Under the pieces are notes generated by a model. The model was given only the letters and a program-made list of their open reading frames with translations. It did not search any database and had not been told where the DNA came from. The position numbers and the translations under genes are program-made. Source: Ruditapes philippinarum (Eukaryota). Taken from it: 64,000 bases of DNA. Every line of letters starts with the position of its first letter. Position 1 is the stretch's first letter. Positions 31,771 to 62,660 of the stretch are shown here, piece by piece. Location: the NCBI RefSeq assembly GCF_026571515.1, contig NW_026852366.1, positions 62,001 to 126,000 of the forward strand. Reading direction: 5' to 3'.

Positions 31771-34700
31771 CCAGTTTTCTTGCTCTTTTCCAAAGGCATC
31801 TTCCGAATACGCTTGATTAGTTTCCTTAAAATAAATAAATATATTAAATAAATAAATAAGTTCAAACCGATAATGCTTTAAAAATCAAACCAATATTTCG
31901 TTTATAATAATGTATACTCGAATATGTGCTTAGGGTGGTCTTCGAATCACGATGTAATATAGGTTGCAGTTTATATCAATTTAGGTACCCAGTGGCAGTT
32001 TTCAACAATAAAAAACTATCATCAAATGCCACATTCCCAATTTATAAAGTGCTTTTAACACATGTCCAGGAAAGCAAGTAAAATATTGCAAAACTAAAAT
32101 ATCTATTTTTAGAAAGTATTCACCTGATTGCTCTGCTTTGTATTGTCTTCAAATCACAGCATATTATTGCAGTGAAAGCCATTTCTATTCTGTCTATGAG
32201 ATATGATTTCGATGGTGTCTTGTAAAGTGATTTTACCGCTTCTGACAGTTTAGCGGATCGTCGCTTTACATATCTAAGCATTTTTCTTAAGACGGTCGGA
32301 TTGGACTGGTAGGACTGTAGTACTAATATAGTCTCTTCTGCACTGAATTTAGTGCTTTCGCAGACATTGTTGTTGTATGTGGTAGTTGTAACTTGTACAG
32401 GCGTAGTTGTGGTAACTACACTTGGTGTACTTGTGGTTACTTCTGCTAAAATAAGAAACGGTGGAATATTAAAACAAACATTTCATGCCAAAGCGCATGC
32501 GCGCATGTACGCAAGCAAATTCATGGTTAAAATAATTTAAAAAAGATGTTAAAAGGAAAATTTAAGTTAGACATAAGTTATTAAATTGAATGTGAATTAA
32601 CTTTTAAAAATACATGTATAACACCTACCGATTTTGCAAATCAGACGTTCAGGTTTTAGAATTTAGATAAAGATTTAATTGAAAAACACAATTGCCGTAG
32701 AGGCTAACAAAGAGACCCCAGGGTACTTTTATCATAAACTTTTTAAGTTTTCTTTAAGAGTAACAAACATTACTGAGCTTGTGTGCGAGCCACCATATTG
32801 CTTTCTTGTTCTCTTTAACTCAAGTTGTGACATCTCAAAAACAAAATTCACCCTTTCACGGAACAAAGTTGTACGAAAATAAGTATGATGAGAGTTTGCG
32901 ACATTAACGATTTACTGTACTACCTGAAATTCAACTATTCATTAGGGTTAAGCAATATATTCTTGCCTTTGATAGACACTATTCCCGAAATAGATGTTTA
33001 CTTTATTATGATACGTACTTGTCTCCCCTTGATAGTTATTGTAGAGGCGACCAAGTTCAGTAAGTTCAGATCGATCTTTCTTCAGAAGGCTTGCGGCTGT
33101 GGTGATGAATCCGGACTTTGTCAGCCTAGCCCTGTACCAAGCATATCTACGAACAAATNNNNNNNNNNNNNNNNNNNNNNNNNNNNNNNNNNNNNNNNNN
33201 NNNNNNNNNNNNNNNNNNNNNNNNNNNNNNNNNNNNNNNNNNNNNNNNNNNNNNNNNNNNNNNNNNNNNNNNNNNNNNNNNNNNNNNNNNNNNNACAATT
33301 CATGTCTATTTCCTTTTTTTCGAACATTTTACAAATGAGAGGTCGGTAATACCCTCTTTTTTTAAATATTGTTCAATTGAGAGGTCGGTAAGACAATCTT
33401 AACAGTTGCCATAGGTCACCCGTGCATCAAGTGATTAAGATAGCTTAGTTTGAAGCACTTGCCCCTCGACGCTGTGAGTTCGACCCCCTGTCAGGAACGT
33501 TGGTTTGTGTCGCGTGAAGACATAAACTGGACAGACGACTGATGCTGTGACGCTCTAACATTGTTTAAATTGTTCATGTCGGAAAGAAAATGCAGGGAGA
33601 AACAATTTGCATCTATCTCTATCTGTTACGAAGTCTGAACTGTTTGACGAGATAAATGCAAACAAAATAATTACATTTGTCAAATTAATTCATATCATGT
33701 CTAAGAAATAAATATTTTACATTTGAGAAAAATGATCTTAAGATAGCATGTTAGATGCTTCGGTAATTGTTTTACCTATATATGTAGTCAGCAGCTTCAA
33801 GTCGCGGTAACATGTCTTTCATATAATTCAGTTGTTCCAACTCATACGGCGATTCGCCGCAAGCAAACTCTGTCAGCCAAATTTTTCGCCCGTATCTCTT
33901 GAACAAACTCTCCAAATACGTCATTGTTTTGTTTGCATTACACCAATACGTGTGTGTTGCGAGGTAATCAACTCGGCAGTCTTTGCAGAGTTCGAAGAAC
34001 TTGTCAAACCATTCGATTTCAGTACTTCTACAGTTCTTTCCACACACTGCCGCTGATGGGCTCACTAGTGGTTTCCCTTTAGAATGCTTTTCTACCTCTT
34101 TCCATGCTGCAGCCGCTTTTTCTGGCGACATATTGGATTGCTCTACGTGATTTGGCTCATTGAAACCGAGGACGAATTCAGCCGCATCGTCAATAAAGAT
34201 CTTCGTGTCACTCCAGTATCCCCAAACCATGGGGACATAGTTGTGTTTGTAGTTATCGATTGATGACTTGCAAATATTTTTCTCGTGGAAATAATCTAGA
34301 CTCATTCTAAAGTCAAACCTACAAAATTACAAAAAATCTTTAAAAACATTATAATTTTATATGTATACATTCATTGCGGTATACATGTATTATATTGATT
34401 TAAAAATAGTATAATCTTTAAGCACGACTCTACATTTCCGTTTACATTCAGAAATAGAATGCTTATAATTATCATATAGTCTTACTTTATTTTTGTCTCA
34501 TTCGTATACATACATTTTTGTTACATCACAAAAAGCATGCATACGGTCATTCTAATTAAGAATTTGTTGTTGTTCTTATTGAATAAGTTAGAATAATTAT
34601 CTGTCGCACAATTTTTTTCAATGTTATATTTTGTAATNNNNNNNNNNNNNNNNNNNNNNNNNNNNNNNNNNNNNNNNNNNNNNNNNNNNNNNNNNNNNNN

Positions 34701-39101: not shown

Positions 39102-41479
39102 CAAATCTTCTGTTCGATCATAATATACGTTGACGCTTGGATGATTTGTTTAAAAAAGAGGAGTGTAAATTTTGTTGTTTTGCTACATGCCTGGTTAATA
39201 AAAAACAACATAACTCATCCTGATACATCGGTAGATAAAAGATTACAATCTTAAAAGGTGTGAAAAAATGACGAATGACCAGATTACATCCTAGACAATC
39301 CAGAGGTTAAATCAGTAATCCATCACGCATGTCCCGCGCAATTTGCGCGAGACAATGGTTATTTGCCGATTGCTGCAAAAATATACGGACATGGTTTTGT
39401 ATAAAAATGTGCATGTTTTTAATACTTAATATTTGTAAAATATATTATGGCAGTCATTTAAAGGAGATGTTTGGAATGTCAGATAAATGTAATTGTATGC
39501 AAAAAATGCGAAAAAAGACGTAATAACGCGAATAAAGGCGTAATAAGGCGAATAATTATAAAAAAACAATAATAATAAAACCAGTTTCAGTAGAAAGATA
39601 TAAAACTAAAGTTTAGGGCCCGAATAAGTCAACCTGTTTTTTAGGTTGTGGTATTAATAAATCTTTTTTGTTGACCTAAATTTGTGATCTTGGCTTTGCT
39701 GAACAAACTGGATTTTTATTTTTTACTGTGGAAATGATGCATTGTTAATTAATTTATAGTTACATAATGATAGTTTCCTTGTTAATTTGATTGTACGCAT
39801 AGTAAGGAAAGTGCATTGTATCTATTTTTCATTTACTTTAACTGTGTTTTAGAACAATAAAATAGAAGAGTGTCTTTAGTTGGGATTTTCAGTCTACTTT
39901 TGGATTAAAATAAATAAAATAAATAAACTAATTTTGATCCATTCACAAGTTTATATTAATTACTGCCTTTTTTCACAACCACATTTTTTAAAATTTCTAT
40001 TCTGTAAGGGAATTATTGCTTACTAGTATCAAACTAAATATTTAATTTTGTAACAGTTAGAGTTATCTCTCTTTCAATAATTAATACAAATCAGTGACCA
40101 TTTCCCTTTACCGAATAGTCACACCTTGAAACAATAGTCCTAAATAAATAAACAGAGTTTTATTATTTGTTGCATACATGGATTAAAATTACTTAAAACT
40201 GTTAACTATTAAAACGGACGCTCTCCGAAAAAATCAACTTAGAAAAAATAAAAGCATTATTATAAAGAAAACTACAGTTTGTAACATGGTAATGTATTTT
40301 TGCAGTTGAAATAGTAATTCAACAAACGAAAAATAGGTAAACTTATTTTGTTGTGTTAATGATATTATAACACATTTTTTTCTATTAAATATGCACGACC
40401 TTAAATTGTTAAAATAAATAAAAGTTATGTGAATAAATATGGTAAAACTTAAATGATCTTTTTATGATTTTAAAGGGGAAACCGGATAAATCCGCCCTAT
40501 TTATCAATCAATCTTAACCACTAACTCTGATACATGATATAGTAAGATTGAAACATAATATATCTGCCCAAATAATATAACTTGTCAGACATGGATCTTA
40601 TTTCACCCATACGCTTTTGATGTTTCCCTGTCCTTTTGTTTTTATTCAATTTACCTTTCTTTATGAATTGAATACATGTTTTGATTTTTCATTGTTATGA
40701 ATGAATAAGTTAAACCTGTTTCAGTTTAAGGGCTAGTGACACCGGTCATTTTAATTAGTTCGCTTAAAGCCCTACTTAACGCCCCACATAATAACCGTTA
40801 TTATTGCAACATTTCCAATCATGATCATTATTATAAATTATATTTAAAATATTGTATGCTATGCAGTTTCGTCTTACATATTTATAAAAGTAAAATGAAT
40901 ACATCTTTTGGTATGTTACACACTAAAGGTAAACACAGTTAAAACACAAAGTATCGTTAAAAAAAATAAAGTTGTTTATGAAATGACCTTGGCGAAGGAT
41001 GAGAATGCTGCTTCCAAACATACCGTTAGGGCATTGTCTTACTCAAATTAGGCCTATTTAGTAAGAATTTCCTAGATTTAATGTATTTCTACAAGATGTG
41101 CTTTACCCAAGGATAATTATTATCTCATTGTATCTTTTTTGTTACATTCATGGACGGTCCCAAATTAAAAGCACGCTGTATCAAATACAAATTTAGCATG
41201 ATAAGGGGTATTACCATCGGATAAAAATGTTTTGATACATGTTGTTCTCGTGATAATATTTAAAATGTCTATATGCATGTGTCGGGCACATGTTCAATTT
41301 TACGTAACGATAAAACCAACTATTGCTTTTCAAGCGTGTTTAACGCGATATGATATTGTCTAGGGTGTTCATGTTCCTTATAGACTTTTTCCATGGCCAA
41401 ATTCATTATTATCTTTGTACTTATCATATATGTTAATCAATGTTTCTTTATCTTTTACTTGTAACAATTATTATTCAAT

Positions 41480-42839
41480 ATGAATATTGGTGGCATATGC
41501 ATTATCATTGCACTATTGGCAATTAATATCACACGTGAGTTTATTTCCTTTACTTTGTTGTGCATTCATGCTTTTATTACAATAAATCATGCACGAAATA
41601 CAAGAAATTCATAACGCGGTTATCTATCCGGACTTGGGCTTATTGATAATGATTTTTAAGATCACATTGAAAGCCGCAAGAATTTATACCTGTCACAGTG
41701 CATTCGGATCAAATGAGCACACGAACGCTTCAGAGTTGAACTGCTTGGTTGCCTGACCGACCTTAAATTAATTGACGATAAAACGGTAAACTCTAGTATC
41801 TTTGAAAACGTACGTTTTGTTGTTTGGTGCCATGCTGATGATCTGTCAATATCTATCAAATATTACATACACTTTAATTCTTTAGAAGCTGCTAAATGTC
41901 ATGTCCCTGGACTCTTAGCACTATGTAAAAACATTTAAAATATATTGCAAGTCAAAGGAGGGGGTGCTTGAGGTGGAGACATTTTTGCATTTTTAAAAGA
42001 ACAATTAAGGGTCAACAATGATATTATAGTTTGCAGTTTGAATACAAAAAAATGTTGTTTTTTTCTTCTTCTTTCTCTGCAAATTATGCAAAATTCTCTA
42101 TCTAAAGATGTGTATATTTCTGCTTATTTCATATTATAATTATATTATTGTCTTATTAAACCTTCGGAACCTGTTAATCAAGAAATTATACTATTTGCTA
42201 ACTATGCCTCACAATTGCTTATTTTCATATGCTTCATTTTTGGGGGTGCTCTGATGCAGTTCAAAAACGTTGATCGTACGCTGTATATCTGAATCATCAT
42301 ATTGTAATTTGCATTTTGTGCAACAGTACAGTTAAAATAGTTAATATAGTTAAATGTTGTGAATGGAATTAGGTTATCACATTGTTTAAATAGTGCTACT
42401 TTTATAAACAAAAAGGTATTTCAAACTCAACGCTTATATTTCAGGTGATAAGAATCTAACATGTTCTAAATCTATAACATGTACTTCAACTCTCTTAAAA
42501 GTAAAGATAACTGATTTCTTAGTCAAAGTTTCCCTTTAAATCTTTGTTTATATTTTTCACCAGTATCAAAGTCTTGTAACTGGCCAACAGATAACAGAGA
42601 AATCAATAATATTACCATCGTCTTCTAACGATGCTTCAAGGAATAACAGCAGGCGTGTCAGTATAACTGATATAGCAGAAACGCAGATCTTAGATATCAA
42701 CAGTAATAACAATGTATTATCGCCATTTAATAGTTTTGATACATCAACGAAAACCGGAAGTTATGCAGATGGCATGATGGTATCTCCTGTTTCTGAGATG
42801 TCACTTCCCGTTTCCCCCTCAGATAGTGTAATAACGTGA
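41480..42839 (+). pseudogene. Membrane-protein gene copy A: intact signal-peptide exon 1 plus a chimeric exon 2/exon 10 remnant (internal deletion of ~8 kb)
   Basis: Exon 1 41480-41534 (MNIGGICIIIALLAINIT, donor gtgagt). Acceptor at 42563, then ~25 nt of exon 2 (SKSCNWPT) joined out of frame at ~42589 to the last 250 nt of exon 10, near-identical to ~52252-52501. In-frame stop at 42626-42628. Confidence 0.8.
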
Positions 42840-44292
42840 TGCAAATCGGCCACATTGAATAAATGAAGGTTTTTTACTGTCATTTGCGTACATTTTTCAC
42901 AAACACATCTGTTTATATTATTTAAGGAAATAAATGCGTTATCAACAACAAATATGTTATTGTTTAACATAGTTACTTCTCTTTCAAAATCTAGCAAATA
43001 TGTAACCTTTGCACTTTACCGTAGATTTACGCTAAAGACCAATACTTGTGTTTGAAGATTCATAAATGTACAAATAAACGCATACAAATAGTTTAAATAA
43101 AGGTAATAGTACAATTTGAAAGTTAAGAAATTAACGGAAGTCAACAAGATAATAAAATCAAATTTTCTTGTAGTTTTGCAGTGGTTACATAGAAGACAAC
43201 AAGTGTTTACTAAAAACGAAGACAGAAGAAAAATTGTGTTGTGCACATGTGTGTACATGCTAACACATTTCGAATAGTGCATAACTTTGTAAAACCAAAA
43301 AAAATTGTTATCAGTCAATGCACACAATATATTAAATCTTTGTTAGATTTTCGGACAGTTCCGTGAGATTTACGCACTAAGATACGATTTTATTCAATTT
43401 GTGTCTCTGAAATAATTACACCGAGCGTTATAGCGCAATAGGATAAACTACAGGTTTATAATTTCTAAATATTATAAGATCGAAACCGCGTAGGTCCATG
43501 TTTTTTATGCTCAATATCATTGAAACTATGGCTGATTTGTGTGTTGTTCGTTTACTATAAATATGTTTTTGCACTTATTTTGGTAAAATACACTTTTTAA
43601 ATAACATGGTTTAATAAAGAAAAATAATATTTCAAATTTATTTGGATTAGAAACAAGAAAATTAATGTAATTTCAATGTCGTAAAACACAATATAAATCG
43701 AGACAGAATAGTGTTTCGATGTTTCTTCATATCCGTGTAGACATATTTGCAAATAACCGACCAAATCCATCAATCTATAGTGTACAAATTAGGAACTGTA
43801 GGGGTCGTAATACAGACTTCTCATATATTAGGTAATCACTTTACTGTCTATGCTATGCGGATGTGCCGACGACATATACATTAAGCTGGTGTGACTTTTA
43901 AAAAAGAATAGTTATAATCGTATTAAGTCTAAAACTACACGGACAGAGCCGAAGTGGGATCGCATATTTAAATGAATGCTATAATGTATTCAGCATTGGC
44001 AGGTCAATAAAATCAGACTATATGTATGAATGAATGCAATAAAACACCTGAATGAATTTTATGATTCTAAAATTGAAACCCTTTACATCAATTAGTAAAA
44101 CTGTATGATATGGCAAGATTGAAACCTAATATATCCGCCTTTATATTACACGCGTGTTCTTTTGTAATAAGCATTTCATGTGTCCTAAATCTATTACGTA
44201 AACGCTATAAATAACATGTTTGCCTATAAATTTTCATTCACTCATTTCTTAGGTATAGGTTGCATTAAAATGTTTTATACTTTCTTTCCCAG

Positions 44293-47200
44293 TATCAAAG
44301 TCTTGCAGCTGGCCAACTGCCTTTAGAAATACAATATGGCACGACAGCAACCGTGGTGAGGTGACATTTACAGATACGACACTGAGTGGCTGGGGCGCAA
44401 CAGCTCAAGGGGGGACAACAATAGATTCATGGGAATGCTACAGTGTAAATGAAACTTCGTCTACTACATTAACACTTTTACTGAAGTAGGCTTTTCCTAA
44501 AATAACTTATCTTAATCAGTGTTCTGTTTAATATACAATTTCGAGGCCCAAACATTCATCTAACCGAAAAGTTAATATTTCACAATTGTTTAACTTATCA
44601 GCTTGAATATGTAGCAATTTAATTGCTTAAACATAAAAAACGGAGCAAGTAAACTATGATGCGTTGTTAAATAAGTTGTAAATCCTGAATTAAGGCGTTT
44701 TCAACTATAACATAGCTAAATTGTAACAGTATAAAATAAAACTATATTTAAAAATGATGACAGTCCATGGCTGATTTTCAAAATAATATAAGACTGAAAA
44801 ACCACTGCTTAAGTTGAATTTTTCACAATCCTTGTGCTGTGTTTTGACCGGTGCCGTTGTTAAAAAAGAATACCCGTAAAGAATACTTAAGATACAAGTA
44901 CGATTATAATCTTTGATGTTGAAGTTCCTCCATGTATAAAACGAATTGCGTTGTTTCAGAGCAACCACAACTTTTGAATTATGGAGAATGCATTATGTCG
45001 CATATGCGTGTTTGCAGATGGAAGAGTTTTCGGAGCAGGGTTACAGGTACTACCAGATGTCTGGTAAGTAATTCATTGTGAATAGTATGTTTCTAAAGCA
45101 AGTAAGGCTTTATGACTTCAGTGTGCCAAGTACCAATTGTTTTACGAATAAATAAATGTATATATATGATACATTTATTTTCCGTTGACATCATAATGTA
45201 CGTCTATTTTTTTTTACAGAAGAAGACCAAAGAATGAGTTATGACCGTCTCCCTGTGTCAGAATCGAGTACATATCTAATTAACCCACCAACAGAAAACC
45301 GTCTTTGTTTGTCGTCAGATGACACCAATGCGCCATCTACAGAGGAATATCATGTCATCATAAGAAATGGTACATTTTATTATTTAAAAGGTTATTTTAT
45401 GACTATTCAAAGGTCGACACAACCCTTTTGACGGTCAATATATATAAATTGGAGGATCAAGTTATGCAACTTTGAAGATCAATTCATTTACAAATACACT
45501 TTAAAAGTTAATGTATGCTTAGGTAAAGGCCAATTTATACAATTTGAAAGTCATTTTCACTTTTATGATCAAAGTGAATTAACATACTGTTGGCCTTGTA
45601 TTATTATTTATCTACACTGTTGGATAGATCTTTTGACATTTTGCTAGCTTACCTTAATTGAATTTATACAATAACTTTTTTATAGTGAGTGAGCTATAAT
45701 TGTTGAGTTACAACTGTTTGATATTTAACCTTTGAAGGACTAAAATAAGAAAAGTATCAAAATGACAGACAAACAAAAAACAAATCCCAAATACCATTTC
45801 GATCTCTATAAATAGCTTCATGATAAAGAAAGAAAAAAATGTTGCTTTGGGAGAGTTTTATTTTTGTAGTACGATAAAAATTCTGTTCATGTTCGTGTTA
45901 TATGTGACATTATTATCTTAAAACATTTTGCAGATAAAACAGAAGCTGCTAGTCGTGCTTGTCCTAGTGAATATATAAGATCACACAAATACATTGTGGC
46001 TGACACGAAAACAGAATATTGTGACTCTGGTGATAGTTCTTGGAGCGTTTGCTCTAGCAGCGACACAATGATGTTCAATTATACACTTTGTTCAAAAATA
46101 CTTGCTTACTCGGGTAAAGTATAGCCATCTGGCCAAATTATATATTACAAAATGAAAGGGGGTGTCTGCATCCAAGTAATAAAGTAAGTTCGAACCAAGA
46201 TACTCTTCAAAGATGTTGGTTTGAATTCCACCAGGGACTTTGGATTCTATCACATGAGGAGACTATCTAGCTAGATAACGAAAGTCAGCGGTTCTACTCA
46301 AAACTGACTCATGCATGAAATAATTTACCGAGGGGTACCTAAGGTCTATCTCAGCCAACAAAACTGAATATTCACCATATTTCTTTAACAGTATCGGTAT
46401 TTCATAAAACCCAAAATCAAACAAAAGAAAAAATCACGACAGAGTTAATTTGTAAAAATAAAATGTCAATTGATGAAAGTAACTGATATTATTTTAATAT
46501 TTTTGCATTTATTGAATAACAAACAGACACATGTGTGAAAGGCAAAAAGAGTGTCTGAACTTTATGATGATGATAATAATAAACAAACGTTTTCAAGTTA
46601 AATGTATGTCTAAATTGCAAATTTGTTGAAAAGGGGAATAATGCATCCTCTCTCGCAAAACGATATGCAGGTTAAAAAATAAGTATCCATAATAGATCAA
46701 CTAAAACTACAACTACATTGTCTTATATTAAAATTTCAGATCAAGGCATTGTGAACTGTGTTTTTGACATGGTAGATGGAAATAACACACATGTTACGGT
46801 CATGACAAAGGAAATAACAAGTAGCCAACGGTTTACTTGCTTCGTAAGCTAACTTTTAAAAATATATTACATTGTTTAGAATTGGGACATCTGTTATTTT
46901 AAAGCTTACTTTGACCAAAATTAATAGAAGATATCCCTTGCTATTTAGATACATAACATCTAAATCATTTAATATTCACGTATTCAAAAATATCTTTCTT
47001 CTTTAGTTTAATTATTAACGTAACTATAACATTAATTTGATATACCTTGTTTAAAGTTGTGCTACCTTCTACGTTTTCAATTTTTGTAAGAGTGCATGTT
47101 GACATTTATATATATAGTTATACTGTAGAGTGGTATGATATTCCAGTTATTTGATTTCACAACAAACACATGACCAATAAAGAGAATGATGCTTCAAGTC

Positions 47201-50200
47201 AATGTTGCAAAACAATGATGTCAGTTATATACCATATTTGCAAACACACAGCCTAACAGCTTCGTCACATATAAACAGCTTTGTTACATATATGTGACCA
47301 ATAAAGAGAATGATGCTTCAAAAGTCAATGTTGCAAAACAATGATGTTAATGACAATACCATATTTGCAAACACACAGCCTAACAGCTTCGTCACATATG
47401 AACAGATTTGTCACATATATGTGACATAAGATATACTTAATGTCGTCGAATATCCGCTCATTGTTGGACAATAAACGCTAGTAATTAGGGAATGGTCCGT
47501 GACTCTGCAAAGTCCTTTTAATGCAGTGCTTTTATTTATCTTGCGTCTCATTTCTATCACGTTAAGGTCGAAGGCTTTAGCAGTACGTCCATCGCGCTGA
47601 TATTGTTTTCGCTTAGAAACATTTCTGTTCCTATCGCTGTATAATAATTGATATGATATGCTGCAGCAACAACAACCCCGTGTTGATCCTAATCATAAGT
47701 GTTAACCTGATTTGTTGCAATTCGTGCTCTTCATATTGCAATTATTGAAAACAATGTTAGACAACAGTCTTTCTGCCGATTCTTTGCCATGAAGCATACC
47801 ATTATGCTTGAGTTGGCGAGTCTACCTCAATGTTATGCACAACTTTATGTCACATCCTTGTGAAACCCCACTAGACTTTGATCTACAGTCTGGTTAAGCA
47901 TGTATATGCAATACAATGATAATTATCACTATCACCATCAGTTTACAATATTTACATTTCACACACAATCGTATACGTTGTGTATTGATTGAACATTTCA
48001 ACACGATCTAGAAAATATGGACGTATCATTTTACACTATGTAACCATGCATACTTACAAGATATTGCTGTGTGTCTATTTTAAACGAAGGTATCTCATTT
48101 GGCTCAAAATGGAACTCTGTACGTTTCACAGCATCCTGGAAGTTGTGCTAAATCGCAGTCGCCTTTTGATGTACCATCATCTGGACTGAAAATGGTATTA
48201 AATGACAAAGGTAAATGAAATATTTTTGGATTAATTTTAGCTCCACTGTTTGAAAAAAAATAGGTAGAACACTCTTCCGCTGTGGCGTCGGTCCACGTTA
48301 ATGTCGGCGTTGGAACCTTTAGGTTCATTTAACTTTAATACCAAATTGCATAATGTTATGAAATTCAAATTTCATTACTTGTTTATGATCTTGTGATACA
48401 ATATCTATGATTTAGTCGCGCTGATTAACCGTTTTGTTAAGGTCAATTTCTCTAAAATTATCAAAGATATTTACTTAAAACATTTAATTCTTGCTCACTT
48501 TTAGAATTTGATGCATTACTAAAGATCAAAGATCACATAACACTAAAAGAGCATTTTTAAAAAAAATCTTATTCCTGCGAAACATTTTATCAAAATAATA
48601 TTCCCTTTCCTTTTTTTTAACCGTACTATCAAGTACTTAGAAAAATTAGGCGCACTACTCCTCAGATAGATCTTGTCTAAATCAATTGAAAAAATTGGCC
48701 CCTTATAGACGGTCTATTAGTTATGAATTGTTAGATTGATAGTTTTTAGCTCATTTGTCACAAAGTGACATGGTGAGCTTTTGTGATCGCTTTTCGTTCG
48801 TCTTCCGTCCGTCGTCCATCCGTAAACTTTTACTTTAAACAACATCTCCCCATAAACCGCTATGCTAATTTCATCCAAACTTCACAGGAATGTTCCTTTG
48901 GTAGTCAACTTTAAAAATTGTTCAAAGAATTTTATTCTAAGCAGAACTCTGGTTGCCATGGCGACCGAAAGAAAAAAACTTAAAATATTGTCTTTAAGAA
49001 AACCGAAACAGCTAGAGCTTAAATATTTGACAAAGAACATCATCTAGTCAGTGTCTACCAAGTTTGTTAAAAAAATGCCCTGGGGCCAAAATTGATTTCG
49101 CCTCGGGGGTCATTGATTTTCCTTTTTTGTTTAAAGTAAAAACTTTAAACAATCTTCTTTTAAAAACCCTAAGAGCTAGAGCTAAGATATTTCGCGTGAA
49201 ACATCTTCTTATAGTTGTCTACCAAGTTTGTTCAAATAAGTGCTCAGGGGTTAAAATTGGCCCCGCCCCGGAGATCATTGTTTTTCCTTATATGTATATA
49301 GTAAAACCTTAAAAAAATCTTTTAAAAAGCCCAAATAGCTAGAGTTTAGATATTAAGCATGAACTATCTTCTAGTGAGTGACTACCAAGTTTGTTAAAAT
49401 AATTGCCAAGGGGACAAAATTGGCCCCGCCCAGATGGGGGAGGGGTCATTGTTTTTCCCTATATATGTATAGTAAAAATTAAAAAAAAATATTCTTACAG
49501 CTAGAGCTTAGATATTTATCATGAAACATCTTCAAATGGGTGTCTACAAAGTTTGTTCAAATAAAAGCCCTTGGATTAAAATTGGCACCACCCCAAGGGC
49601 CTATATACATGTACAGGTGTGCGATTTCAGGGCCGTCATGGCCCGCTTGTTTATATATTATGTAAAACAAATCCACGGAAATATTACAAATGGACATTGT
49701 TTGTAAGAGTAACATACATGATCCGATATGGAATATTTGCATTACGCAGATAATAAAAAGTTCTAAAACAAAATAATGTTATTAATGATATGAATTTTAT
49801 AATATTAGATCACGTAAAACTCGCACCAGTGCGAGTGTTATTTAAGCTTGACTATTTAAAAAATAATGAGAACTATCGTACACACTTCGGCATCGGTCAC
49901 ACTCTGCACATTGGTATCTCTATAATACTAAAGTGAACGGGTTGAAATTTCTTACACGTTTTTGAGAGTCTTATAGGAGGCCAATGTCCAAGGCCAAAAA
50001 CTCTAACGTGGATGTTGACAGAACTATGGCTCTCTTTGAACTTAGAAAAATTCTTCATTTTTACTGTCAAGCACTGTGGTTAGTGGAGGACGTTGTCCTT
50101 TTGCATAAACTTACATCTCCTGTTAGAAAGTATTATGTTAACTTATATCATAAACCACATATAAATGATGATTAGTTTTAATCGTCAATATCTACTATAA

Positions 50201-52501
50201 TATCTACTAAAATATTAGATAATTATTTCTATTTCATCAATATCAAAACAAGCTTAACTATACTTTGCAGAAAAAGATGTGAATTAAACATACTACTGTG
50301 CTTACTTCTTCTTATTTCTCTTTTTCAGAGCTGTGCGGTATGTAGATTAATAGTTTTCTCCATTTCTAAAATAACATAGATAATTTGAGACATTTTAGAT
50401 AATAAATCATTATATTGTTTTTGTAGGAAACGCATAACTTAACTTTTTGTAAATTTTTGTGTAATGTAAGAAGCATTTCGGATATCTGATTGTTCCAGAA
50501 AAAGAGAATTTATCATGATAATAATTGTTGTGATGTACTGATTGTGCCCTATATGGATAAATTGTTGTCCTGTTTTCTATAATTATATATATTTTTTAAT
50601 TTGTAAATTGCGTTTTTTAGAAGAAACTACAACCTCTACAACATCTACAACTTCTACAACTACGTCAACCACTACGTCTACAACTACGTCAACCACAACG
50701 TCTACGACATCGACCACATCTACAACATCTACAACCTCCACAACATCTCCAACAACGTCCACTTCTACTACTTCTACTTCTCCACCAACAACCACTACTA
50801 CCGTCCCTACAACAGCTTCGACTTCACCAACAACTTCGTCAACGACAACAACGACGACACCTACTACCACCACAACTACCACTACTCGAACAACTACAAC
50901 TCAAAAACCAGCGGCTGGTAGTAAAACCACACTTTACCTAGCCATTGCCATAGGCTGTGTTGCCGTGATATTGCTAGTTTGTCTAATCATCATCTCAGTT
51001 AAGATGTTTTGCTGTAGAAAACCTCCTCCTCGACCGAAAACACGTATGACCATTTTCTCTAATTTCTCTCTGTTTAAATTTTCTTTTCCAGACTTTTGTA
51101 CTTCCATTCCTAGGTTGGATTTAAGATCATACCGACAAAGTCATAAGCCGGTTTACAAGATTTACTTCTTTGTATAATATTTTTTGGCTCGAATAAGCAT
51201 ATGAGTAGAAACAATAACCTGCCCATATAATGAAACCGAAAGTACATCTTGGAATTAGAGTAAAACAGCAGTGGCACACAGAAAGAGATACAAGACCTTA
51301 TATATCCCACCACTAAGACCCATATTTATTTCTCGCTGTTGACTCAAACGGCACAGAAGTGGTCATAGGGCATCATTCAGGTTTTTGTATTTGAGATAGA
51401 TTTCAGGGGCCACCCAATGTATTATTTCCGGTACAACCGGATATCCAAGTAGAATCATGATGAGTCTTAATAAAAAAGATACGCTGAAGTATTTTTAAAT
51501 TATTGAACATGACAATAGAATAGTTGATATACTTCAACTTCATACTTTGTACATTGTATTACATAGAATAGTGTGCCCTCGGTGAATTATTTCAGACACG
51601 AGTTGGCACTTGAGTAGAATCAATGCCGTTTCTTTGCTGGCTGAAGTATTTGTTGTCATTTGAACAAACGGGCGCTAGTGGTTTGAAGTCGAGTGCCTTT
51701 TTACCCTATTTTTTTATGATTGTTAAAAAATACGAATGTTTTCATAAAATGACTATATGCGTTATTTTTACAGCGGTTTCAACAATAGAAGGGACGTCAC
51801 ATAAGACATCAGGGTATGGAGTTGTGCCTTGGGGATTTACCAGAGCACCACGGGAAACAACGATCATAGAAGATGTGGATCAAGAAAGCGAAGGCAAAGA
51901 TTCCTGGCAGGCCCAAAAACGAAGTTCTTTCCCTAAGGAACAAATTAATCAACACAATGCTGCTTATCATAGAAAGTCTTCCGTAAATTTACCATCTTGG
52001 CAGGAAGGACAGGGGTCTGTTTTCATGCAACCAGAATCAACGCCTGCAAAAGGTATGTCTCTTCCATTAAAACCAGAGTCAATGTACGAAGCTCGTCCAG
52101 CATTACCAAGAGAGAATACAAAGACAGTTCCAGTATTCGATGATATAATAATGGATGAAAATGTGAATTTTGCTTTACGGTATTCTTCAAGGATGAAGGA
52201 CGTCAAGAAAGAGTGGTATGAACGACGGAATTCTGGGACGACTTCCTCTATGATTACAGAGAAATCAATAATTTTACCACCGTCTTCTAACGATGCTTCA
52301 AGGAATAACAGCAGGCGTGTCAGTATAACTGATATAGCAGAAACGCAGATCCTAGATATCAACAGTAATAACAATGTGTTATCACCATTTAATAGTTTTG
52401 ATACATCAACGAAAACCGGAAGTTATGCAGATGGCATGATGATATCCCCTGTTTCTGAGATGTCACTTCCCGTTTCCCCATCAGATAGTGTAATAACGTG
52501 A
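44293..52501 (+). CDS. Uncharacterised type I membrane protein, copy B (Cys-rich ectodomain, Thr-rich mucin-like stalk, TM helix, ~255-aa Ser-rich cytoplasmic tail); lacks its own exon 1
   Basis: Exons 44293-44485, 44960-45063, 45220-45369, 45934-46113, 46740-46843, 48090-48210, 50329-50337, 50621-51043, 51774-52501. All GT-AG, one open frame, each boundary mirrored in copy C. TM LYLAIAIGCVAVILLVCLIIISV is followed by KMFCCRK. With exon 1 at 41480-41534 the CDS is 2067 nt (688 aa). Confidence 0.85.
46165..46430 (+). mobile_element. Old tRNA-derived SINE (MetaSINE-like) in an intron of copy B; truncated equivalent at ~57000-57170 in copy C
   Basis: ggtttgaattccaccagggactttggattct..catgagga..ctatctagctag..gcggttctactca..gaggggtacctaaggtct..aaaccc followed by an A-rich tail. 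The family name is from recollection of bivalve SINE consensus. Confidence 0.65.
47171..47425 (+). repeat. Tandem duplication of ~125 bp
   Basis: tgaccaataaagagaatgatgcttcaa...cagcttcgtcacatat occurs at 47171 and again at 47295. Confidence 0.9.
48744..49652 (+). mobile_element. Non-autonomous Helentron-associated element (HINE/DINE-1/pearl-like) with internal tandem repeats
   Basis: 5' ttttagctcatttgtcacaaagtgacatggtgagct hairpin/subTIR, a (cgtc)n-like tract, ~4 internal repeats (gctagagcttagatatt...ccaagtttgttcaaataa...aaaattggccccgccc), and a 3' caggtgtgcgatttcagggccgtcatggcccgcttgttt hairpin. Inserted in a T-run and absent from the equivalent intron of copy C (~59930). Confidence 0.85.
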
Positions 52502-54397
52502 TACAAATCGGCTACATTGAATAAATGACGTTTTTAATGTCATTTGCGTACATTTTTCACAAACACATCTGTTTATATTATATAAGGAAATTAATGCGTT
52601 ATCAACAATAAACATCTAAATGTTTAACATACCCTGTAGTTACTTTTCTTTCAAAAACAACATGAAGGAAGCAAATATGTAACTTTTGCACTTTACCGGA
52701 GATTCAAGCTAAAGACAAATAGTTGTGTTTGATGATTCATAAATTTGTACAAATAAACGCATAAACATTGTTTTTTGATTNNNNNNNNNNNNNNNNNNNN
52801 NNNNNNNNNNNNNNNNNNNNNNNNNNNNNNNNNNNNNNNNNNNNNNNNNNNNNNNNNNNNNNNNNNNNNNNNNNNNNNNNNNNNNNNNNNNNNNNNNNNN
52901 NNNNNNNNNNNNNNNNNNNNNNNTAATTTTATCATTATTATTATAATTATTATTATTAAAGTAAACAGCAGGCACCAAGTTAATTAAATCAAATGTTATT
53001 GTAGTGTTTCAGTTGTAACATAGAAAACAAAAAGTATATACTACAAATGAAGGAATGTGGAAAAAGTGTATTGTTTATGTGTTTACATAAAAAAAAGCTA
53101 ACACGCTTTGAATAGGGCATTACTTTGTAAAACCAAACAATTTGTTATTAGTCAACGCACACAATTTTCGGACAGTTCCGAGAGATTTAACACTAAGATT
53201 TGATTTGATTTAATTTATGTGTATGAAATAATTTCACTGCGAGTTATAGCGCAATAGGATAAACTACATGTTTATAATGTCTAAATGTCCTAAATGTGGT
53301 AAAATCGAAACCGCTTTTGTCAATGTATTTTTCCATGCTCAATATAATTAAAACTATGACTGATTTGTGTGTTGTTTGTATACTATAAATATGTTTTTTC
53401 ACTTATTTTGGTAAAATACACTTTTTAAATACCACGGTTTAATAAAAGAAAATAATATTTGAAATCTATTTGGATTAGAAACAAGAAAATTAATGTAGTT
53501 TTAATGTCGTAAAACACAATATAAATTAAGACAGAATAGTGTTTCGATGTTTCTTCAGTGTAAAGGAGTGCTATAATGTATTCAGCATTGACAGGTCAAT
53601 GAAATCAGACTACATGTATGAATGTATGCAATAAAACACCTGAATGAATTTTGTGATTTTAACATTGAAACCCTATACATCAATTAGTAAAACTTACTAA
53701 AGCTTATGTATGATATGGCAAGATTGAAACCTAATATATCCGCCCAAATAATTAAACTTGTCTATTGTTATAATAATAAGACATTGATACTCTAAATTCA
53801 CACATTTGCCTGCGATTGTGTCGCAGTTCTTTTGTTTTTAGTCAATTTACCTTTCTTTTTAAATGTTTTGTTCTTCATTGTATTTGATATATAGGTTAAA
53901 ACGGTAACAGCTTTAAGGTCTATTGACACCTGTAATAATGTTTTTGCCATGCTCAATCCATGAACGTTGAAGCTTAGATGACAATGGTCGTGAACGTCTC
54001 ATACATCAACAATAATAATTATGGATGGTAGACGGGAAGGTCAGTAGGTGGGTAGGTAGGTGTGTAGGTAGGTTGGTGTAAGGTGGGTCGTTTGGTTAGC
54101 CAGTAAGCAGAAATATATTGTTCATGTGGTAATTAGATGTTGAATGTCTATATGACAAGTTTAGGAACAGGTTCAGTCCAATCAAAGAAATTCCAAAGAT
54201 ATTCAAATTAACATATATTATAACAATTGACATGATATTTTATACACATTTCAAGCGTGTTTTACACAGTATGATACTTTCTAGGGTATACGTGTTCCTT
54301 AAAGACTTGTTCTATTGACAACATTCATAATTACGTTTGTACTTTTTAGATTAGTTAATCAATGTGTCTCATTTACTTGTAACAATTATAATTCAAT

Positions 54398-57300
54398 ATG
54401 AAAAATGGTGGCATATGTGTTATTGCAATATTGGCAATAAATGTCAAACGTGAGTTTATCTTCTTTACTTTGTTATTAGAATTTTAATACATGTATGGTT
54501 TTGCAACTCATGTATGAAGTATGATACGTTTAAAACGTGTCTTAAACGGGCTCTGGCTCGCCAATTTGTTTTTAAAATAACTTAAATGCCAAAATTCATA
54601 CCAGTGACGATGGAGGCCGCTAAGTTGAGCATAAAAATACTATTACAAATTTGATTTGCTTGTTTGTTTCGCATTTGATAGTTAATTGGCCGACCGTTAA
54701 TAAATGCGTATAAAAGTAAGTAAATAATGTTTCATATGCTAGTCCTTTTGATAACTGATGTTTTGTTTCATGTCAATGGTTTGTCAATATCTTTGTCATT
54801 ATTTGCTTCTTTTGTATTTTGGCAAATAGTATAGTTATAATAATTAAGTGCTTTATATTCACATATTTATATTACATTACACGCGTGTTCTTCTTGTAAT
54901 AAATCTAGTTTTTAAACGCTATAAATTACATGCTTGCCTATAAAGTTTAATTCACTCATTTCTTAGGTATAGGTTGCATTGAAATTTCTATTATTTTCTT
55001 TCCCAGTATCAAAATCTTGCAGCTGGCCAACTGCCTTTAGAAATACAATATGGCACGACAGTAACCGTGGTGAGGTGACATTTACAGATACGACACTGAG
55101 TGGCTGGGGCGCAACAGCTCAAGGAGGGACAACAATAGATTCATGGGAATGCTACAGTGTAAATGAAACTTCATCTACTACATTAACACTTGTATTGAAG
55201 TAGGTTTTTCCTTATCATAATTTACCTTAATCAGTGTTCTGTTTACACAATTGCGAGGCCCAAACATTCATCTAACCAAAAAGTTAACATTTCACAATTG
55301 TTTAATGAAAATTCATACTCTTATCAGCTTAAATATGCAGCCATTTAATTGCTTAAACATGAAAAACAGAGAAATCAAACTATGAAGCGTTTTTAAAAAA
55401 AGTTGTAAAGCCTAATTTAAGGCGTTTTCAATTATTACATAGCTAAATTGTAACAGCAAAAAATAAGACTATATTTAAAAATGATGACAGTCCAGTGTTG
55501 ATTTTCAAAATAATATAAGACTGCAAAAGCACTGCTAAAGTTGAATTCTTCATAATCCTGTCTAGACAGGTGCCGTTGTTAAAAAACAATACATGTAAAT
55601 AATACTTAAGAGACATGTTAGATTATGTTCTTTGATGCTGAAGTTCCTACATGTATAAACTGAATTGCATTGTTTCAGAGCAAGCACAACATTTGAATTA
55701 TTTAGAATTACCTATGTAGTTTATGCGTGTTTGCAAATGGAAGAGTTTTCTGAGCAGGGTTACATGTACTACCAGATGTCTGGTAAGTAATTGATTGTAA
55801 AAAGTATGTTACTAAAGCAAGTAAGGCTATATGACTACAGTGTGCCAAGTACCAATTGTTTTATGAACAAACACAGTTTAATGCTGCATGCATGCATGCA
55901 TTCATGCATATATGTATGTATGCTATAATAAATAAAATTCAACGATCAAAGTATTAATTTGTTTCAATAAAGCCTCTTTGTGCATTTTTATCTTTTTAAA
56001 AAAAACGATGTTTGCTTTTCTTCATAAAGGAATTTGTAACAATATAAATATTAATATTAAGAATATAACCACTTTTTTATCAGTACACTTTTATAATTAT
56101 GTTGTACTTCTCCTTAAAAAATCGAAACGTATTTAGAATTATTAATTATTTATGATACATTTTCCGTTAATGACATCATGAAGCAAGTATAATATTTTTT
56201 TACAGACGAAGAATCCAGAATGAGTTATGACCGACTCCCTGTGATTGAATCGAGTACATATCTAACTAACCCACCAACAGAAAACCTTCTTTGTTTGTCG
56301 TCAGTTGACACCAATGCTCCATCTGCAGAGGAATATCATGTCATCATAAGAAATGGTACATTTTATAACTTTAAAGGTCAATTTATGCAATTTGAATGGC
56401 ATTATCACTTAACAAACCACAGTGAATTAAAATATTGCTGTCCATGTACATTGTATTATTATTTATTAACACTGTTGGATAGATCTTTTGTCATTTTATT
56501 TTGTTTGCTCACATTTTTTTGAATTTATACAAGAACTTATAGCGAGTGAGCTATAATTTTTTTACTTACGACTGTACGATGTTCAACCTTCGAATGACTA
56601 AAATAAGAAAAATATTAAAATGACAGACCAAAAACAAATCCCAAATACCATTTCGATTTATATAAATAGCTGCTAATAAAGTTGAAGTACGATAAAAATT
56701 CTGCTCATGTTTGTGTTATGTAAAACGCTTTATATATTTGAAAATCAACTTAAACATTTTGCAGATAAAACAGAGGCCGCAAGTCGTGCTTGTCCTAGTG
56801 AATATATAGGATCACACAAATACATTGTTGATGACACGACAACAGAATATTGTGACTCTGGTGATAGTTCTTGGAGCGTTTGCTCCAGCAGCGACACAAT
56901 GATGTTCAATTATACACTTTGTTCAAAAATACTTGCGTACTCGGGTAAACTACAGTCAACTGGCAAAATAATATATTTAATTTAATAAATTTAAAGGGGT
57001 CTCTTCAGATGAGCTGGCTGTCTGGCAACTTTACGTAAGGTCAGTGGTTCTGCTCATATTACAGACTTGTGCCTTAAATAATATACAGATGGGTACTAGA
57101 CTTCTTCATCAACCAAGAAAGCCGAATATTACAATACGTCTTAAATAATATCGGCATTCCTAAAAACCAAATAAGGATAAAATATAGATAGAAACCCCAA
57201 CAAAATCAAGATGTAAAAGTCTTAACTGATTACTTGTATGATATGATATTTTGCTGCTTGATTAGATAACAAGCATGCAAGAATGAAAGAAAATATGAGT

Positions 57301-60300
57301 ATTTAACATTATTAAATGATAATGATGATGATGATAATAATAAAACGTTTTCATCTATAAATAAAAGGTAAAATTTATATCTAAATTTCAAATCCAATTC
57401 AACAATTGAAAAATACTTCGTTTTTCTTAAAACTAATTATAGCATTAAAACTACTTAAATATCTTTCTAGAATTAAAATGACATTAATAATTATGATAAC
57501 ATTAAAATGTTGTCAAATATTTGTATTTCAGATCAAGGTCTTGTGAACTGTGTTTTTGACATGGTAGATGGAAATTACACACTTGTTACGGTCATGACAA
57601 AGGAAATATCAAGTAGCCAACGGTTTACGTGCTTCGTAAGCTAAACATTATATTTCAATTATGTATACATTATTTGTAATTATGAAATCTGTCATTAAAA
57701 AGCTTAGTATGACCAGATATTATTAAAGTAGATATCCCTGACTACTTAAAAACCTTATTTCTTTATCCATGAATTATCGTTTTTTATTCTTTTTCAGTTC
57801 ATTAACTTTATTGATTTGATAAATTTATTGTACCTACTACGTGTTCACTTGTTAAACAAGTTTTCGCAACAAATGATATATGTGTGGTTTTCTTTATTTG
57901 ATTACCACTTTAAGTAACACGTTGACTGTTACGATATACTTTTGTACTAATCTGAGTTTCATATGTTGATCTTGATACAACTAAATTTAGTCTTAAACCA
58001 GACATATACTACGTAAACGAATTTAAATAGACGTCTTTACTTAACAAATCTAATTTATAGATATGCGCGTATAAATTTCAACATATTTGTGCCAATAAAG
58101 ACCCGGGAATGCTATATTTTAATTATAGTTGTACATTAGAGTGATATAATATTCCAGGAATTAGATTTCAATCTAAACAATTATTAAATACACATGGCCA
58201 AAATGTTGATGATTCCTGTAATTAACCTTTTACCAAATGAGCATATTGTAAAAAGTGGCCTTTTTCATTGAAAAGCCTCCTGTTACAAGATCTAACTGCT
58301 ATAAAACTATGATAAATGATTCAATACGGATGAAACTTGGCACATATGTTGCCTGAACCATAACCTCTGTAACAAAATGCTCTACATAAATTTCCTGTTA
58401 CCATGGCAACGGGGGACGTCTCAAATTTGCGAGAAATTACTATTTTGCATTGTTTCTTTTCATCAAAACTGGTTTCTAAGTGCAGCAACTTCTCAATGCA
58501 ATGAGATAGAGTAAAAGGCTTTTCAGCGTTGGTTACACTTCACCTTAAGATCGAGGTCATTTTTAGCCTGTCACATGTCCAAAATTTTATTGGCAGGGAC
58601 TACCGCCCCCCCCCCCTTCAAACACCCCAAACAGAAGGGGGCGCATCCCCCTTTTGGCAACCCTCTGATGTATCATTTTCATGGAGGACCGTGCCGAAAA
58701 AATGGTCACTTTTTAACAAACAATTCTTAAACGAAAAATAGTATTTGGGGCCTAAATAGGGCATTTTTGTATTGTTTGAGGCCTCAAAAAGGGGGGACGA
58801 AAAGCCGTCAATACATATATATATGAGGGAAAAAGTTAAAAGACAATCTTGCAAAATATTAATGACAGCGATAATAACACAGCCTTGGTAAAATATATTT
58901 GATGTAAGTTGCACTTAATGTAGTGGTATATTCGCTAAATCTTGAACAATATACGCTGTTAACAGGGCTTAACAATATGTGGCACTGCAAAATCCTTTTA
59001 ACACAGTTTCTTAATATATCCTGTGTTACATTTCAGTTATAAAATTTAATAAATGAATAATCATGCCATTTATCTGTACAGTATAAATTAAACATTTCAG
59101 CACGATCTTGCCAACATTGGCGAACATGTTAAGTCATTTATACATGCATGTAATATATTACATAAGATTGTTTTTAATTTAAACAAAGGTTTCACATTTG
59201 GCACAAAATGGAACTCTGTACGTCTCACAAAGTCCTGGAAGTTGTGCTAAATCACAGACGCCTTATGATGTACCAACATCTGGACTAAGAATGGTATTGA
59301 ATGACAAAGGTAAATCTTTTTTTTTAAATATAAGATTTCATTTTAGCTCAACCTTCCGAAAAGAAAAAATGGGCCACTCGTTGGTCGGAATTTAATCTTT
59401 TTCGTTTCATTAACTGAAAATTAAGGTAATTTATAACATTCAAACCTGGTTTGTGGAAACACCTTGATGAGATCTGTTACACCAATTTTGTGCTCATTAG
59501 ATTTATGGCCAGTGTCATTGAGACTTTTAATAGGTATTCGGTTAAGGTCATTTTTCTCGAAAACTAGCAAAGCTATTCACTATATTTTTGGTTAACCTGT
59601 TCACAATCATCGTAATTTTTCTAAAACTTTCAATTTGAAAGATTCTTTATTTAAAACTTTGAATGCTTGTTCGCTATAAATGTTGACAAGAACACCCAAA
59701 TTATCCTCAAGGGCATTATTGTCAATTAATCTTGTTTCTTGCTTTATATTTTCTTATCCCTGCCAAACATTTTATCAGAATATGCTCACATTTCTACTTT
59801 GCTTTCACCATACTATCAAATATTGAGAAAAATAGGGTGCATTGCTCTTCGGAGAGCTCTTGCTTTCATAAAAAAATAGATAAGTGGCCAATAGATGAAA
59901 AAAGTAGTAATGCGTGGTTATGTTGATAGTTTTTAATATTTTTTCGTGAAACCAATCCACGGAAATATTACATATGCATGTTATTTGTAAGAATACCATG
60001 CATGATCCGATGATACATATCTGTATATTGCAGGTAATAAATTGTTCTAGAACAAAAACTGTTATTAAAGAAATAAATATTATTATTAATCACACAATAC
60101 TCATATCATTGCCAGTGTAATTTTAACTGGCTATTCAAAGAATTAGGATAGCTTTTATAATAACTTCTACATTGGAGTCAACATTTGCAAGTTTGTATCT
60201 CCCTAATATCGCTTTGACATATTTCATTTCAGTAAAATTCAAAAATTAATAACTGTATGAGTGTCAAATAACAATATTTACATGTTTAAGGGAATACTTT

Positions 60301-62660
60301 GAATTTTTCCGCCCATATTTTCGAGTCTGATCGGAACTCACTGTCTAAGGCCCCAAACTGTAATATTTATTTTGACAGAATTTTGGTCCTTTTTAACCTA
60401 AAAAAATTCTTAATTATCAAGGCGGTTGTTTACTATCAATCACTGAGATTTTTTTATCACGCTGTTTTACCAACAACTCTTGTATGTAATATCATGTTTA
60501 CTTATATCATACACTACGTGCCAAGGTGATTTTGTTAAGTCTTACATAATCGCTGCTCAAATATTGGATAGTACTTGTACATTAATATCCTGATATACGC
60601 ACAATATTTGTCAGTAAAAAAGAATCAATCATGCCACTGATTTCTTTTAATTTCTCTTTTCTTCAGAGCTGTGTGGTATGTAAAGTAATAGTTTTCTCCA
60701 TCTTTATTATTACATAAAAATCATTTGATACATTTATTAATAAGATAAAATAATATTATTTATGTTTTGTATAAAACGCATATCCTTACATTTTGTTTAA
60801 AGTATCTGATAATCTATCATTAATGTAAAGTATAAAGAACAAAGCGAATATCTAATTATATATGTCTTCCAGGAAAAAGTTTTCATCAATCTAGCGTAAT
60901 GTTTCAATTTTGCCCTAATAGATATGGATACTCTTTTGTCATATTTTTTTAATTTGTAAATGCCTTTTCAGAAGAAACTACAACCTCTACAACATCAACA
61001 ACTTCTACAACTACGTCAACCACTACGTCTACAACATCGACTACATCTACAACATCCACTACCTCCACAACAACGTCCACATCTACTACTTCTACTACTC
61101 CAACAACAACCACCACCACTACCACCCCTACAACGACTTCGACTACATCAACAACCACCACTACCACGCCTACAACGACTTCAACAACACCAACAACCAA
61201 CCACTACCACCCCTACAACGACTTCAACAACACCAACAACCACCACTACCACCCCCACAACAACTTCGACTTCAACAACAACATCGTCAACGACAACAAC
61301 GACGACACCTACAACCACCACCACATCTACCACTACTCGAGCTGCTACTACTCAAACTCCATCTACTGATAGTAAATTCACACTTTACCTAGCCATTGCC
61401 ATAGGCTGCGTTGCCGTAATATTGCTACTGATTCTGATCATCATCTTAGTCAAGATGTTTTGCTGCAAAAAGCGTCCTCCTCGACCAAAAACACGTATGA
61501 TATTTTTTCTTCTCTAAAATTTCTTTTTCAGGCTTTTGTTATTTCATTTCTGAGTTGGATTAAAATTTTCATCGACACTGTAAAGTCATGAGCTGCTTTA
61601 CCAGTTTTACCTTGTCAATGGTAAAAGTTCTCTGCGTACAATATCTTTGCCGAACGATCATATGAGTAGAATATTGATATTTAAAAAAAACACTTACATA
61701 AAATCTCTCTACAAAGTATGAACATTCAGAATATTTTTGAAATATATTTACTTTTGAAAATTAAAGAAAATTGGTATTCTTTCTCCTATCTTCAGTATAT
61801 TGTATTTCCTTTAGTTTAATGCAGTTCAGTCAATATACAATAAAACTATAAATCAAATAAAAAACGAAATGTTTTTATAAAATGACTTATGCATCTTTGT
61901 TAACAGCGATTTTAACAGTAGAAGATATGTCACACTGGATGTCAGGATATGGGGGTTAGCTATGGACGTACCGGAGCACCGAAGAAAACAATGATCGTAG
62001 AAAACATGGATCAAGAATGCGAAGGCATGCTTTCTAGGGAACATAGATAAACAACAAAAAAGAAGTTCTGTTCCTAAGGAACAAATCGATGAACAAAAAA
62101 ATGTTAAACTTTTCAAAGCAAGCCTTCCGTAAATGTACCACCCACGCAGGAGGACAGAACGTTTGATTCTATGCAACAAACGAAACGCCAACCCAAGCAA
62201 GATAGACTCCGTCATTAAAAACAGAATCAAAAGCATGTAGCTTGTCCAGCATTACCAAAGTAAGAATTACAATGACAGTTCCAGTTATTCGATGATATGG
62301 ATACCATGGATGAAAATGTGAATTATGCTTTACGATATTCTTCAAGGATGCAGCATGTCAAGAATGAATGGCTGATGAACAAAAAGAATTCTTGTAGTTC
62401 CCCTCTTAATAACAGAGAAAACAATTAATAAATTACCATCGCTCCCTAACGATACATCGAGGAATAACAGCAGAGGTATCCAGTATAACTGATATAACAG
62501 AAAACGCAGATTCTTAGATATCAACAGTAATAACCCAATGTGTTATTCAACCCACTTTTAATAGTTTGGGATACATCAACGAAAAAACCGTAAAGTATGG
62601 CAGACGCCATAATAGTCTCCCCTGTTTCTGAATGTCACTACCCCGGTATCCCCCTTAGAT
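54398..62660 (+). pseudogene. Membrane-protein gene copy C: intact exons 1-8, +1 frameshift in exon 9, degraded exon 10 (pseudogene, secreted variant or sequence errors)
   Basis: Exons 54398-54449 (MKNGGICVIAILAINVK), 55007-55199, 55679-55782, 56206-56355, 56765-56944, 57532-57635, 59189-59309, 60667-60675, 60972-61494 (523 nt, extra A at 61199-61200), and 61907-~62660 (early TAG and many 1-nt indels relative to copy B). Confidence 0.7.
58226..58835 (+). mobile_element. TTAA-flanked non-autonomous DNA transposon (piggyBac-like target site)
   Basis: TTAA at 58222-58225 and 58836-58839; imperfect termini ccttttacc / gggaaaaag; related copy at 17300-17672; not seen in the equivalent intron of copy B. 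Confidence 0.7.

Follow-up and report, generated by a model that had tools for sequence, protein, structure and literature searches.

Two kinds of fusion gene formed by duplication and deletion come closest to the arrangement described here. Sdic of Drosophila is reported as the product of duplicated adjacent genes fused by deletions, present in a tandem array with copy-number variation (PMC7475035), and the polymorphic human SIGLEC14/5 fusion allele is reported to place the coding body of one paralog under the promoter of its neighbor (PMC4042635). We analyzed 64,000 nucleotides (nt) of the genome of the Manila clam Ruditapes philippinarum (RefSeq assembly GCF_026571515.1, contig NW_026852366.1, positions 62,001–126,000, forward strand; hereafter the window), in which three related gene copies, A, B, and C, lie in tandem. 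Exon 1 of A joins in frame to exons 2–10 of B, each of these two copies having lost part of the gene by deletion. The arrangement is likely a real haplotype that gives rise to a read-through chimera, with selection on the fusion unproven. As fusion genes of this sort are known, we regard the pair as a duplication-plus-deletion chimeric gene in a new form.

Like Sdic, the chimera is built from two parental gene copies by duplication and deletion. Unlike Sdic, whose parents are unrelated, its parents are paralogs, its product restores the normal exon order, and the fusion is predicted. The anatomy of the locus also predicts a promoter swap of the SIGLEC14/5 type. That allele involves fusion of similar regions with loss of the upstream gene, whereas the clam locus carries two non-homologous deletions rather than one, sharing 1 and 0 nt at their breakpoints, and retains 1,576 nt, comprising a terminal exon, polyadenylation (poly(A)) signals, and spacer, that splicing would have to skip.

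Skipping the last exon of one gene and joining exon 2 of the next is the splicing pattern of read-through chimeras. Such chimeras are described as resulting from failed termination upstream and splicing into the next gene (PMC6459343); there the genes are intact and the DNA unrearranged, whereas here both copies are deleted and neither gives a full protein alone. Kilobase deletions in tandem duplicates are reported to be common (8% of duplicated sites in one Drosophila species and 17% in another; PMC4069613); those duplicates are polymorphic and young, whereas the clam duplication is ~6–12% diverged. Reports also state that tandem-duplication chimeras often change expression (PMC5460883) and that mussels show gene presence–absence variation (PMC7653742). 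Titles and abstract openings in the literature revealed no instance in which paralogs with complementary deletions are joined across a terminal exon that has been kept, which is a thin test.

The three units were recovered by self-BLAST of the window (Table 1). A preliminary description of the locus, made from the sequence, had proposed that A and B carry complementary deletions, and the anatomy largely agrees. A keeps its upstream region and exon 1, which ends in phase 1 at a GT donor. Exons 2–10 of A were said to be lost internally, and ~7.9 kb is indeed gone, but a spliceable terminal leftover made of exon 2 and exon 10 sequence survives. B is open over exons 2–10, and the ~1.1-kb deletion thought to have removed its exon 1 and upstream region measures exactly 1,121 nt against C. 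Spliced together, A exon 1 and the nine B exons form a 2,067-nt reading frame without internal stops, encoding 688 amino acids (aa) plus a stop, and all nine introns of the fused model are GT..AG. The open frame is not a product of chance, because the ratio of nonsynonymous to synonymous substitution rates (dN/dS) between B and C is 0.27 over exons 2–5 (208 codons, P 2e-4) and 0.23 over exons 6–8 (78 codons); the comparison leaves out exons 9–10, in which C is frameshifted.

The A–B join is already present in the automatic annotation. RefSeq XP_060605831.1 (LOC132758280, 187 aa) is, letter for letter, A exon 1 followed by B exons 2, 3, and 4 read into intron 4, where the model ends, under a name that is silent on the two copies; a RefSeq protein of Ruditapes philippinarum matches the B exon 2 translation at 100% identity. 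The model passes over the nearer acceptor of the leftover and has no 4-aa insert. Automatic annotation can join exons of two copies unflagged.

We compared reads from 4 of 24 listed runs with a 17.3-kb stretch at 86% likeness. Run X16 is RNA-like, with zero depth in four exon-free bins. One of its contigs, 279 nt long, matches B exon 4 over 151 nt without a difference, and its length (25+104+150) and the bin depth (13.3 per exonic nt) fit a spliced piece of exons 2-3-4; the first base of another contig coincides with the exon 10 acceptor, 51774. A spliced B-type message exists in another sample, although where the transcript starts is not given by this run. An X16 contig that ends at the exon 4 donor was considered as intron retention and rejected, since it would end there anyway, 30 nt past the last B/C difference. 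Raw RNA from run X21 was uninformative at 1–3 reads per exonic site.

At junction 1 (42589/42590), the exon 2 sequence breaks off after 26 nt and continues as the final 250 nt of exon 10, with a loss of 7,933 nt in B coordinates and one shared G. Junction 2 is blunt; what B lacks there corresponds to the promoter region of C together with exon 1 and the greater part of intron 1. Junction 1 is spanned by a contig (42109–42633) from the DNA run X1, with 44 letters on its short side, against a bar of 31. The contig carries 17 other letters and 9 gap letters relative to the window; it probably represents a second allele with the same deletion, or else errors in the window. X1 may be the source sample, and as such is not independent population evidence.

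Reads of run X5 carry other letters throughout at 44320 and 44342, matching a third exon-2 type. This type, a JGI record (P0100) aligned to 44295–44483, has 4 aa differences from B and may be an intact A or another B allele. The X5 bin containing B intron 2 has a depth of 2.71, the lowest of 30 X5 bins, though depth holes prove nothing. Together, X5 depth and letters offer a lead that the B allele of the window is not universal.

The sequence of B points to how the pair arose. Identity between B and C introns is 0.87–0.89 for introns 1–4 and 0.74–0.81 for introns 5–9, with the drop at ~46150; the aligner floor, from three unrelated pairs, is 0.68–0.74, and global intron identities below ~0.75 were discarded as noise. 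The tail and spacer of A match those of B with an identity of 0.88–0.94, and the high-identity block is continuous, pairing 42590 to ~46150 with 52252 to ~56980. An intron identity drop combined with an A-like tail is exactly what one would expect if A and C had recombined by unequal crossover close to where intron 5 begins, and B is thus likely a hybrid, C-like in exons 2–5 and A-like in its 3′ half. Given the A-like 3′ half, the fusion would largely rebuild gene A with C-type exons 2–5. The hybrid nature of B goes beyond the preliminary description, as does the alternative last exon discussed below.

Comparison of the leftover with B exon 10 suggests when the body of A was lost. Across 82 codons the two differ at 7 synonymous and 2 non-synonymous sites (P 7e-4), and C agrees with the leftover at both of the latter. 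The leftover lineage thus shows 0 amino-acid changes in 190 sites, where 9–11 would be expected under neutrality since duplication, which argues that A was functional long after duplication and lost its body recently. By this estimate the A deletion is young, at less than ~1.6% divergence, with the qualifications that C exon 10 is poor sequence and that gene conversion could mimic the result. Purifying selection between B and C implies that any silencing of B would be young as well. Against a duplication ~6–12% diverged, at least one deletion is much younger.

From these data we infer the following order of events. B would have arisen first, by unequal crossover of A and C, both of them old paralogs, around the beginning of intron 5; two young, non-homologous deletions would then have stripped A of its body and B of its promoter and exon 1. 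Polymerase starting from the A promoter would sometimes run past the leftover and the A poly(A) signals, allowing exon 1 to splice to B exon 2. Expression would therefore come down to a choice between alternative last exons, with a 39-aa dead-end transcript on one side and the read-through fusion on the other; the latter would yield a 688-aa single-pass membrane protein and possibly also a 307-aa soluble form. Should the clam both make and use the fusion, the locus would show two null alleles in cis restoring one gene through nothing but splicing and the choice of poly(A) site, at a stage when the leftover exon has yet to decay, and the first step in the birth of a chimeric gene would become testable. 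If it is unused, the pair represents ordinary decay in a redundant, copy-variable bivalve gene cluster.

We place the probability of read-through fusion of A exon 1 to the B body at about one in two. Several observations weigh against it. XP_060605831.1 is an automatic model built on this same sequence, it contains none of the later exons beyond exon 4, and an apparent A–B join could arise in RefSeq from misplaced reads of intact alleles. The 41534–44293 joint is not among the 15 joints listed out of 1,125, all of which fall in the repeat at 48950–49595, so its presence is neither shown nor excluded. The B-type contig of X16 could derive from an intact B allele; the exon 9–10 pieces of X16 show 4–6% substitutions against the window; and the X16 depth of 1.83 in the A exon 1 bin, where X1 and X5 also show excess depth, may be repeat-derived. 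At the leftover, the acceptor lies 1,029 nt from the A exon 1 donor, nearer than that of B exon 2, with the same pyrimidine content (16/20 for each), and the A tail retains three AATAAA sites found in the B tail. Skipping of the leftover is accordingly not the default splice outcome, and the earlier proposal that A and B rebuild one gene is partly supported, its in-frame join being present in RefSeq for exons 1–4. Spliced to the leftover, A exon 1 encodes 39 aa with a stop at 42626, and this dead-end transcript would compete with the fusion. Both deletion junctions had been marked for confirmation: the first is crossed by the short-read DNA contig described above, but the second (44139/44140) is crossed by none of the 24 pieces listed, with 44,104 more unlisted. 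Finally, summed exon 10 depth hints at several further family copies outside the window, and hence redundancy, with the two-deletion haplotype probably dispensable as a result. The stop-free frame of B had been taken as consistent with use or a very recent deletion, and young deletions explain the openness as well as use does: unused, B would remain intact with a probability of 0.08–0.6 at 0.2–1% divergence under an assumed indel rate, so that its frame would need no use if the deletion is younger than ~1% divergence.

In both X1 and X5, the summed contig depth over exon 10 (at 52201 and 42657) is several-fold above that of single pieces; for X1 at 52201 it reaches 26.7, compared with 2.7–5.3, values that measure depth and not copy number.

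Many of these observations would also fit a double-null haplotype, in which A gives only the 39-aa transcript, B is silent, and the pair drifts as other copies suffice, the RefSeq join then stemming from prediction or from reads of intact alleles. The intact leftover acceptor and AATAAA sites, the high summed depth over exon 10, and the possibility that both deletions are young enough to leave B open favor such a decay, and reads of the third exon-2 type (P0100, with the X5 letter at 44320) would map onto B exon 2. We nevertheless find it somewhat doubtful, as the spliced X16 piece is identical to B exon 4 of the window and the RefSeq model bypasses the nearer acceptor. At the other extreme, the locus could be a case of cis complementation, with two dead paralogs in which splicing across the defunct last exon would restore the sole full-length membrane form of the haplotype and selection would keep it, perhaps helped by a new donor that makes the leftover a harmless 12-nt micro-exon; this we judge unlikely. 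The question of the only membrane form turns partly on C, where the frame is lost within a Thr repeat in exon 9 (523 nt) and exon 10 contains many 1-nt insertions and stops (window 60972–62660). This part of C looks like unpolished consensus or a pseudogene, and if the breakage is real, the A–B fusion would be the sole membrane form in the window.

The appearance of C exon 10 as unpolished consensus also lends itself to an explanation in which the assembler merged diverged alleles and so created one of the junctions, junction 2 being the more plausible candidate. The window, AT-rich animal DNA of 32% GC, contains four N gaps, one inside the B–C spacer; X1 lacks any window letter at sites such as 41691, 41697, and 42147; and junction 2 is missing from the listed read pieces. 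An assembly artefact or haplotype mosaic is nonetheless improbable, given that junction 1 lies within a short-read contig, that X1 pieces match B and C with 0 differences over 399–519 nt, and that the A and B tails differ by 6–12% with a synonymous bias in the coding part, unlike an error pattern. Less credible still is a history with one gene throughout, never two complete copies, in which a single template switch copied the exon 10 tail, spacer, and C exons 2–5 into A in place of its own exons 2–5. The high-identity block would then be one continuous unit, as observed, and the 3′ half of B would be A-like; however, the leftover would have been neutral from the start, in conflict with its 0 amino-acid changes against 9–11 expected unless recent gene conversion intervened. 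We give equally little weight to B being expressed by another route, from a cryptic start in the spacer or through use of the first 12 nt of the leftover as an in-frame micro-exon via a donor at 42576. These 12 nt (42564–42575) contain no stop and keep phase 1 at both ends, and exon 8 of the gene is itself a micro-exon of 9 nt. However, all 18 real A, B, and C donors have a G at −1, at +5, or at both, whereas the 42576 donor has neither, and XP_060605831.1 is without the 4-aa insert that such use would add. A convincing substitute first exon was not found in 42840–44240, the one weak candidate there being short and weakly hydrophobic. The GT at 42576 was created by two substitutions in the leftover, is absent from B and C, and forms a weak donor.

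Beyond the read-through fusion, B appears to have a second possible end. Candidate exon 7b, within intron 7, is conserved between B and C (60034–60050 in C) as to where its acceptor and stop lie, and its inclusion in B would give a predicted soluble form of 307 aa; 14 of 97 relatives are 290–335 aa long. The nearest poly(A)-type hexamer after the 7b stop in B is far off, at 50283. Because the RefSeq model of C ends inside intron 7, the choice of last exon may be native to the gene family.

The full predicted product begins with a signal peptide, followed by a cysteine-rich ectodomain (~285 aa), a stalk in which 86% of the residues are Ser or Thr, a hydrophobic helix near residues 410–435, and a long tail. 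The C ectodomain (P0105) matches DUF7042 (PF23069) at 43.9 bits against a curated cut-off of 27, and the B ectodomain is identical to it at 256 of 283 residues; B exon 5 alone scores 19.9 bits, under the cut-off. The locus is thus a Manila clam cluster of DUF7042 membrane proteins. A representative search returned the 97 relatives, and all seven named clusters among ten proteins looked up are from bivalves. DUF7042 relatives in Mya, Mercenaria, Potamilus, and Sinanodonta share 25–37% identity, and a search with exon 10 among proteins of at least 423 aa gave a single Mya protein from 704 candidates, which is weak evidence. Two metagenome scans contained no clam locus, and no paper naming DUF7042 or XP_060605831.1/LOC132758280 was met in a literature search that did not extend to supplements.

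AlphaFold gives two beta-barrels (pLDDT 89.6), predicted to be small and disulfide-bonded, that resemble many lipocalin-like barrels to a middling degree, the best match being an unrelated lipocalin-like chain (Z 9.1, rmsd 3.1, 99 aligned). APCDD1, reported to consist of two beta-barrels and one transmembrane (TM) helix (PMC10193966), shares this layout and matches the second barrel at rank 23 (Z 6.3, rmsd 3.3, 110 aligned). It is not among the 50 matches listed for the first barrel, and we treat it as a distant look-alike, a lead rather than a sign of kinship. Foldseek gave no match at E<=0.001, and a profile search of PDB sequences gave weak matches only, all of them toward the C-terminus of the profile (best E 0.004). 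The fusion product would most likely sit at the cell surface as a single-pass protein and may bind a ligand that is small or lipid-like.

Table 1. Features of the A–B–C gene cluster in window coordinates
Feature	Position	Strand	Basis or remarks
A upstream region (inferred promoter and 5′ UTR)	40520..41479	+	Patchy homology to C upstream 53696-54397, local identity 73-84%
A exon 1, hydrophobic, signal-peptide-type, 55 nt, GT donor, phase 1 end	41480..41534	+	First exon of RefSeq XP_060605831.1
Predicted intron of fused transcript, 2,758 nt; holds A leftover, A 3′ flank, and spacer	41535..44292	+	Join present in XP_060605831.1
A leftover terminal exon: 26 nt of exon 2 and last 250 nt of exon 10, out of frame	42564..42839	+	Intact acceptor
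A 3′ flank and spacer, AATAAA at 42858, 42929, 43073, 43096	42840..44139	+	88-94% like 52502-53744
Junction 2: blunt 1,121-nt deletion, counterpart of C 53745-54865	44139..44140	.	Sequence comparison
B exons 2-5 (44293-44485, 44960-45063, 45220-45369, 45934-46113), likely C-like part of hybrid	44293..46113	+	Introns 87-89% like C
B exons 6-10 (46740-46843, 48090-48210, 50329-50337 [9-nt micro-exon 8], 50621-51043, 51774-52501), likely A-like part: DUF7042 barrel end, Thr-rich stalk, one TM helix, cytoplasmic tail	46114..52501	+	Introns patchily like C
Candidate alternative last exon 7b of B	49750..49766	+	Homologous to C 60034, used by RefSeq
Copy C, exons 1-8 open	54398..62660	+	RefSeq XP_060605855.1 = exons 1-7 + 7b

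A motif of ~40 nt is conserved at 40532–40570, 44105–44139, and 53710–53745, that is, upstream of A and C and reaching junction 2; upstream of these two copies it is a possible regulatory element. High-copy repeats occupy parts of the B introns and the A–B spacer (48740–49600, 43730–43968, and ~46170–46746), the first of them with a 163-bp unit and very high depth in all four runs. Elsewhere in the window, three similar exons lie on the minus strand (6174–6752, 23045–23599, and 33775–34326), and the one that was scanned, 23045–23599, matches Glyco_hydro_cc (PF11790, E 2e-38). Together with related exons at 2901–3194, 21125–21604, and 32123–32482, they point to a second tandem cluster.

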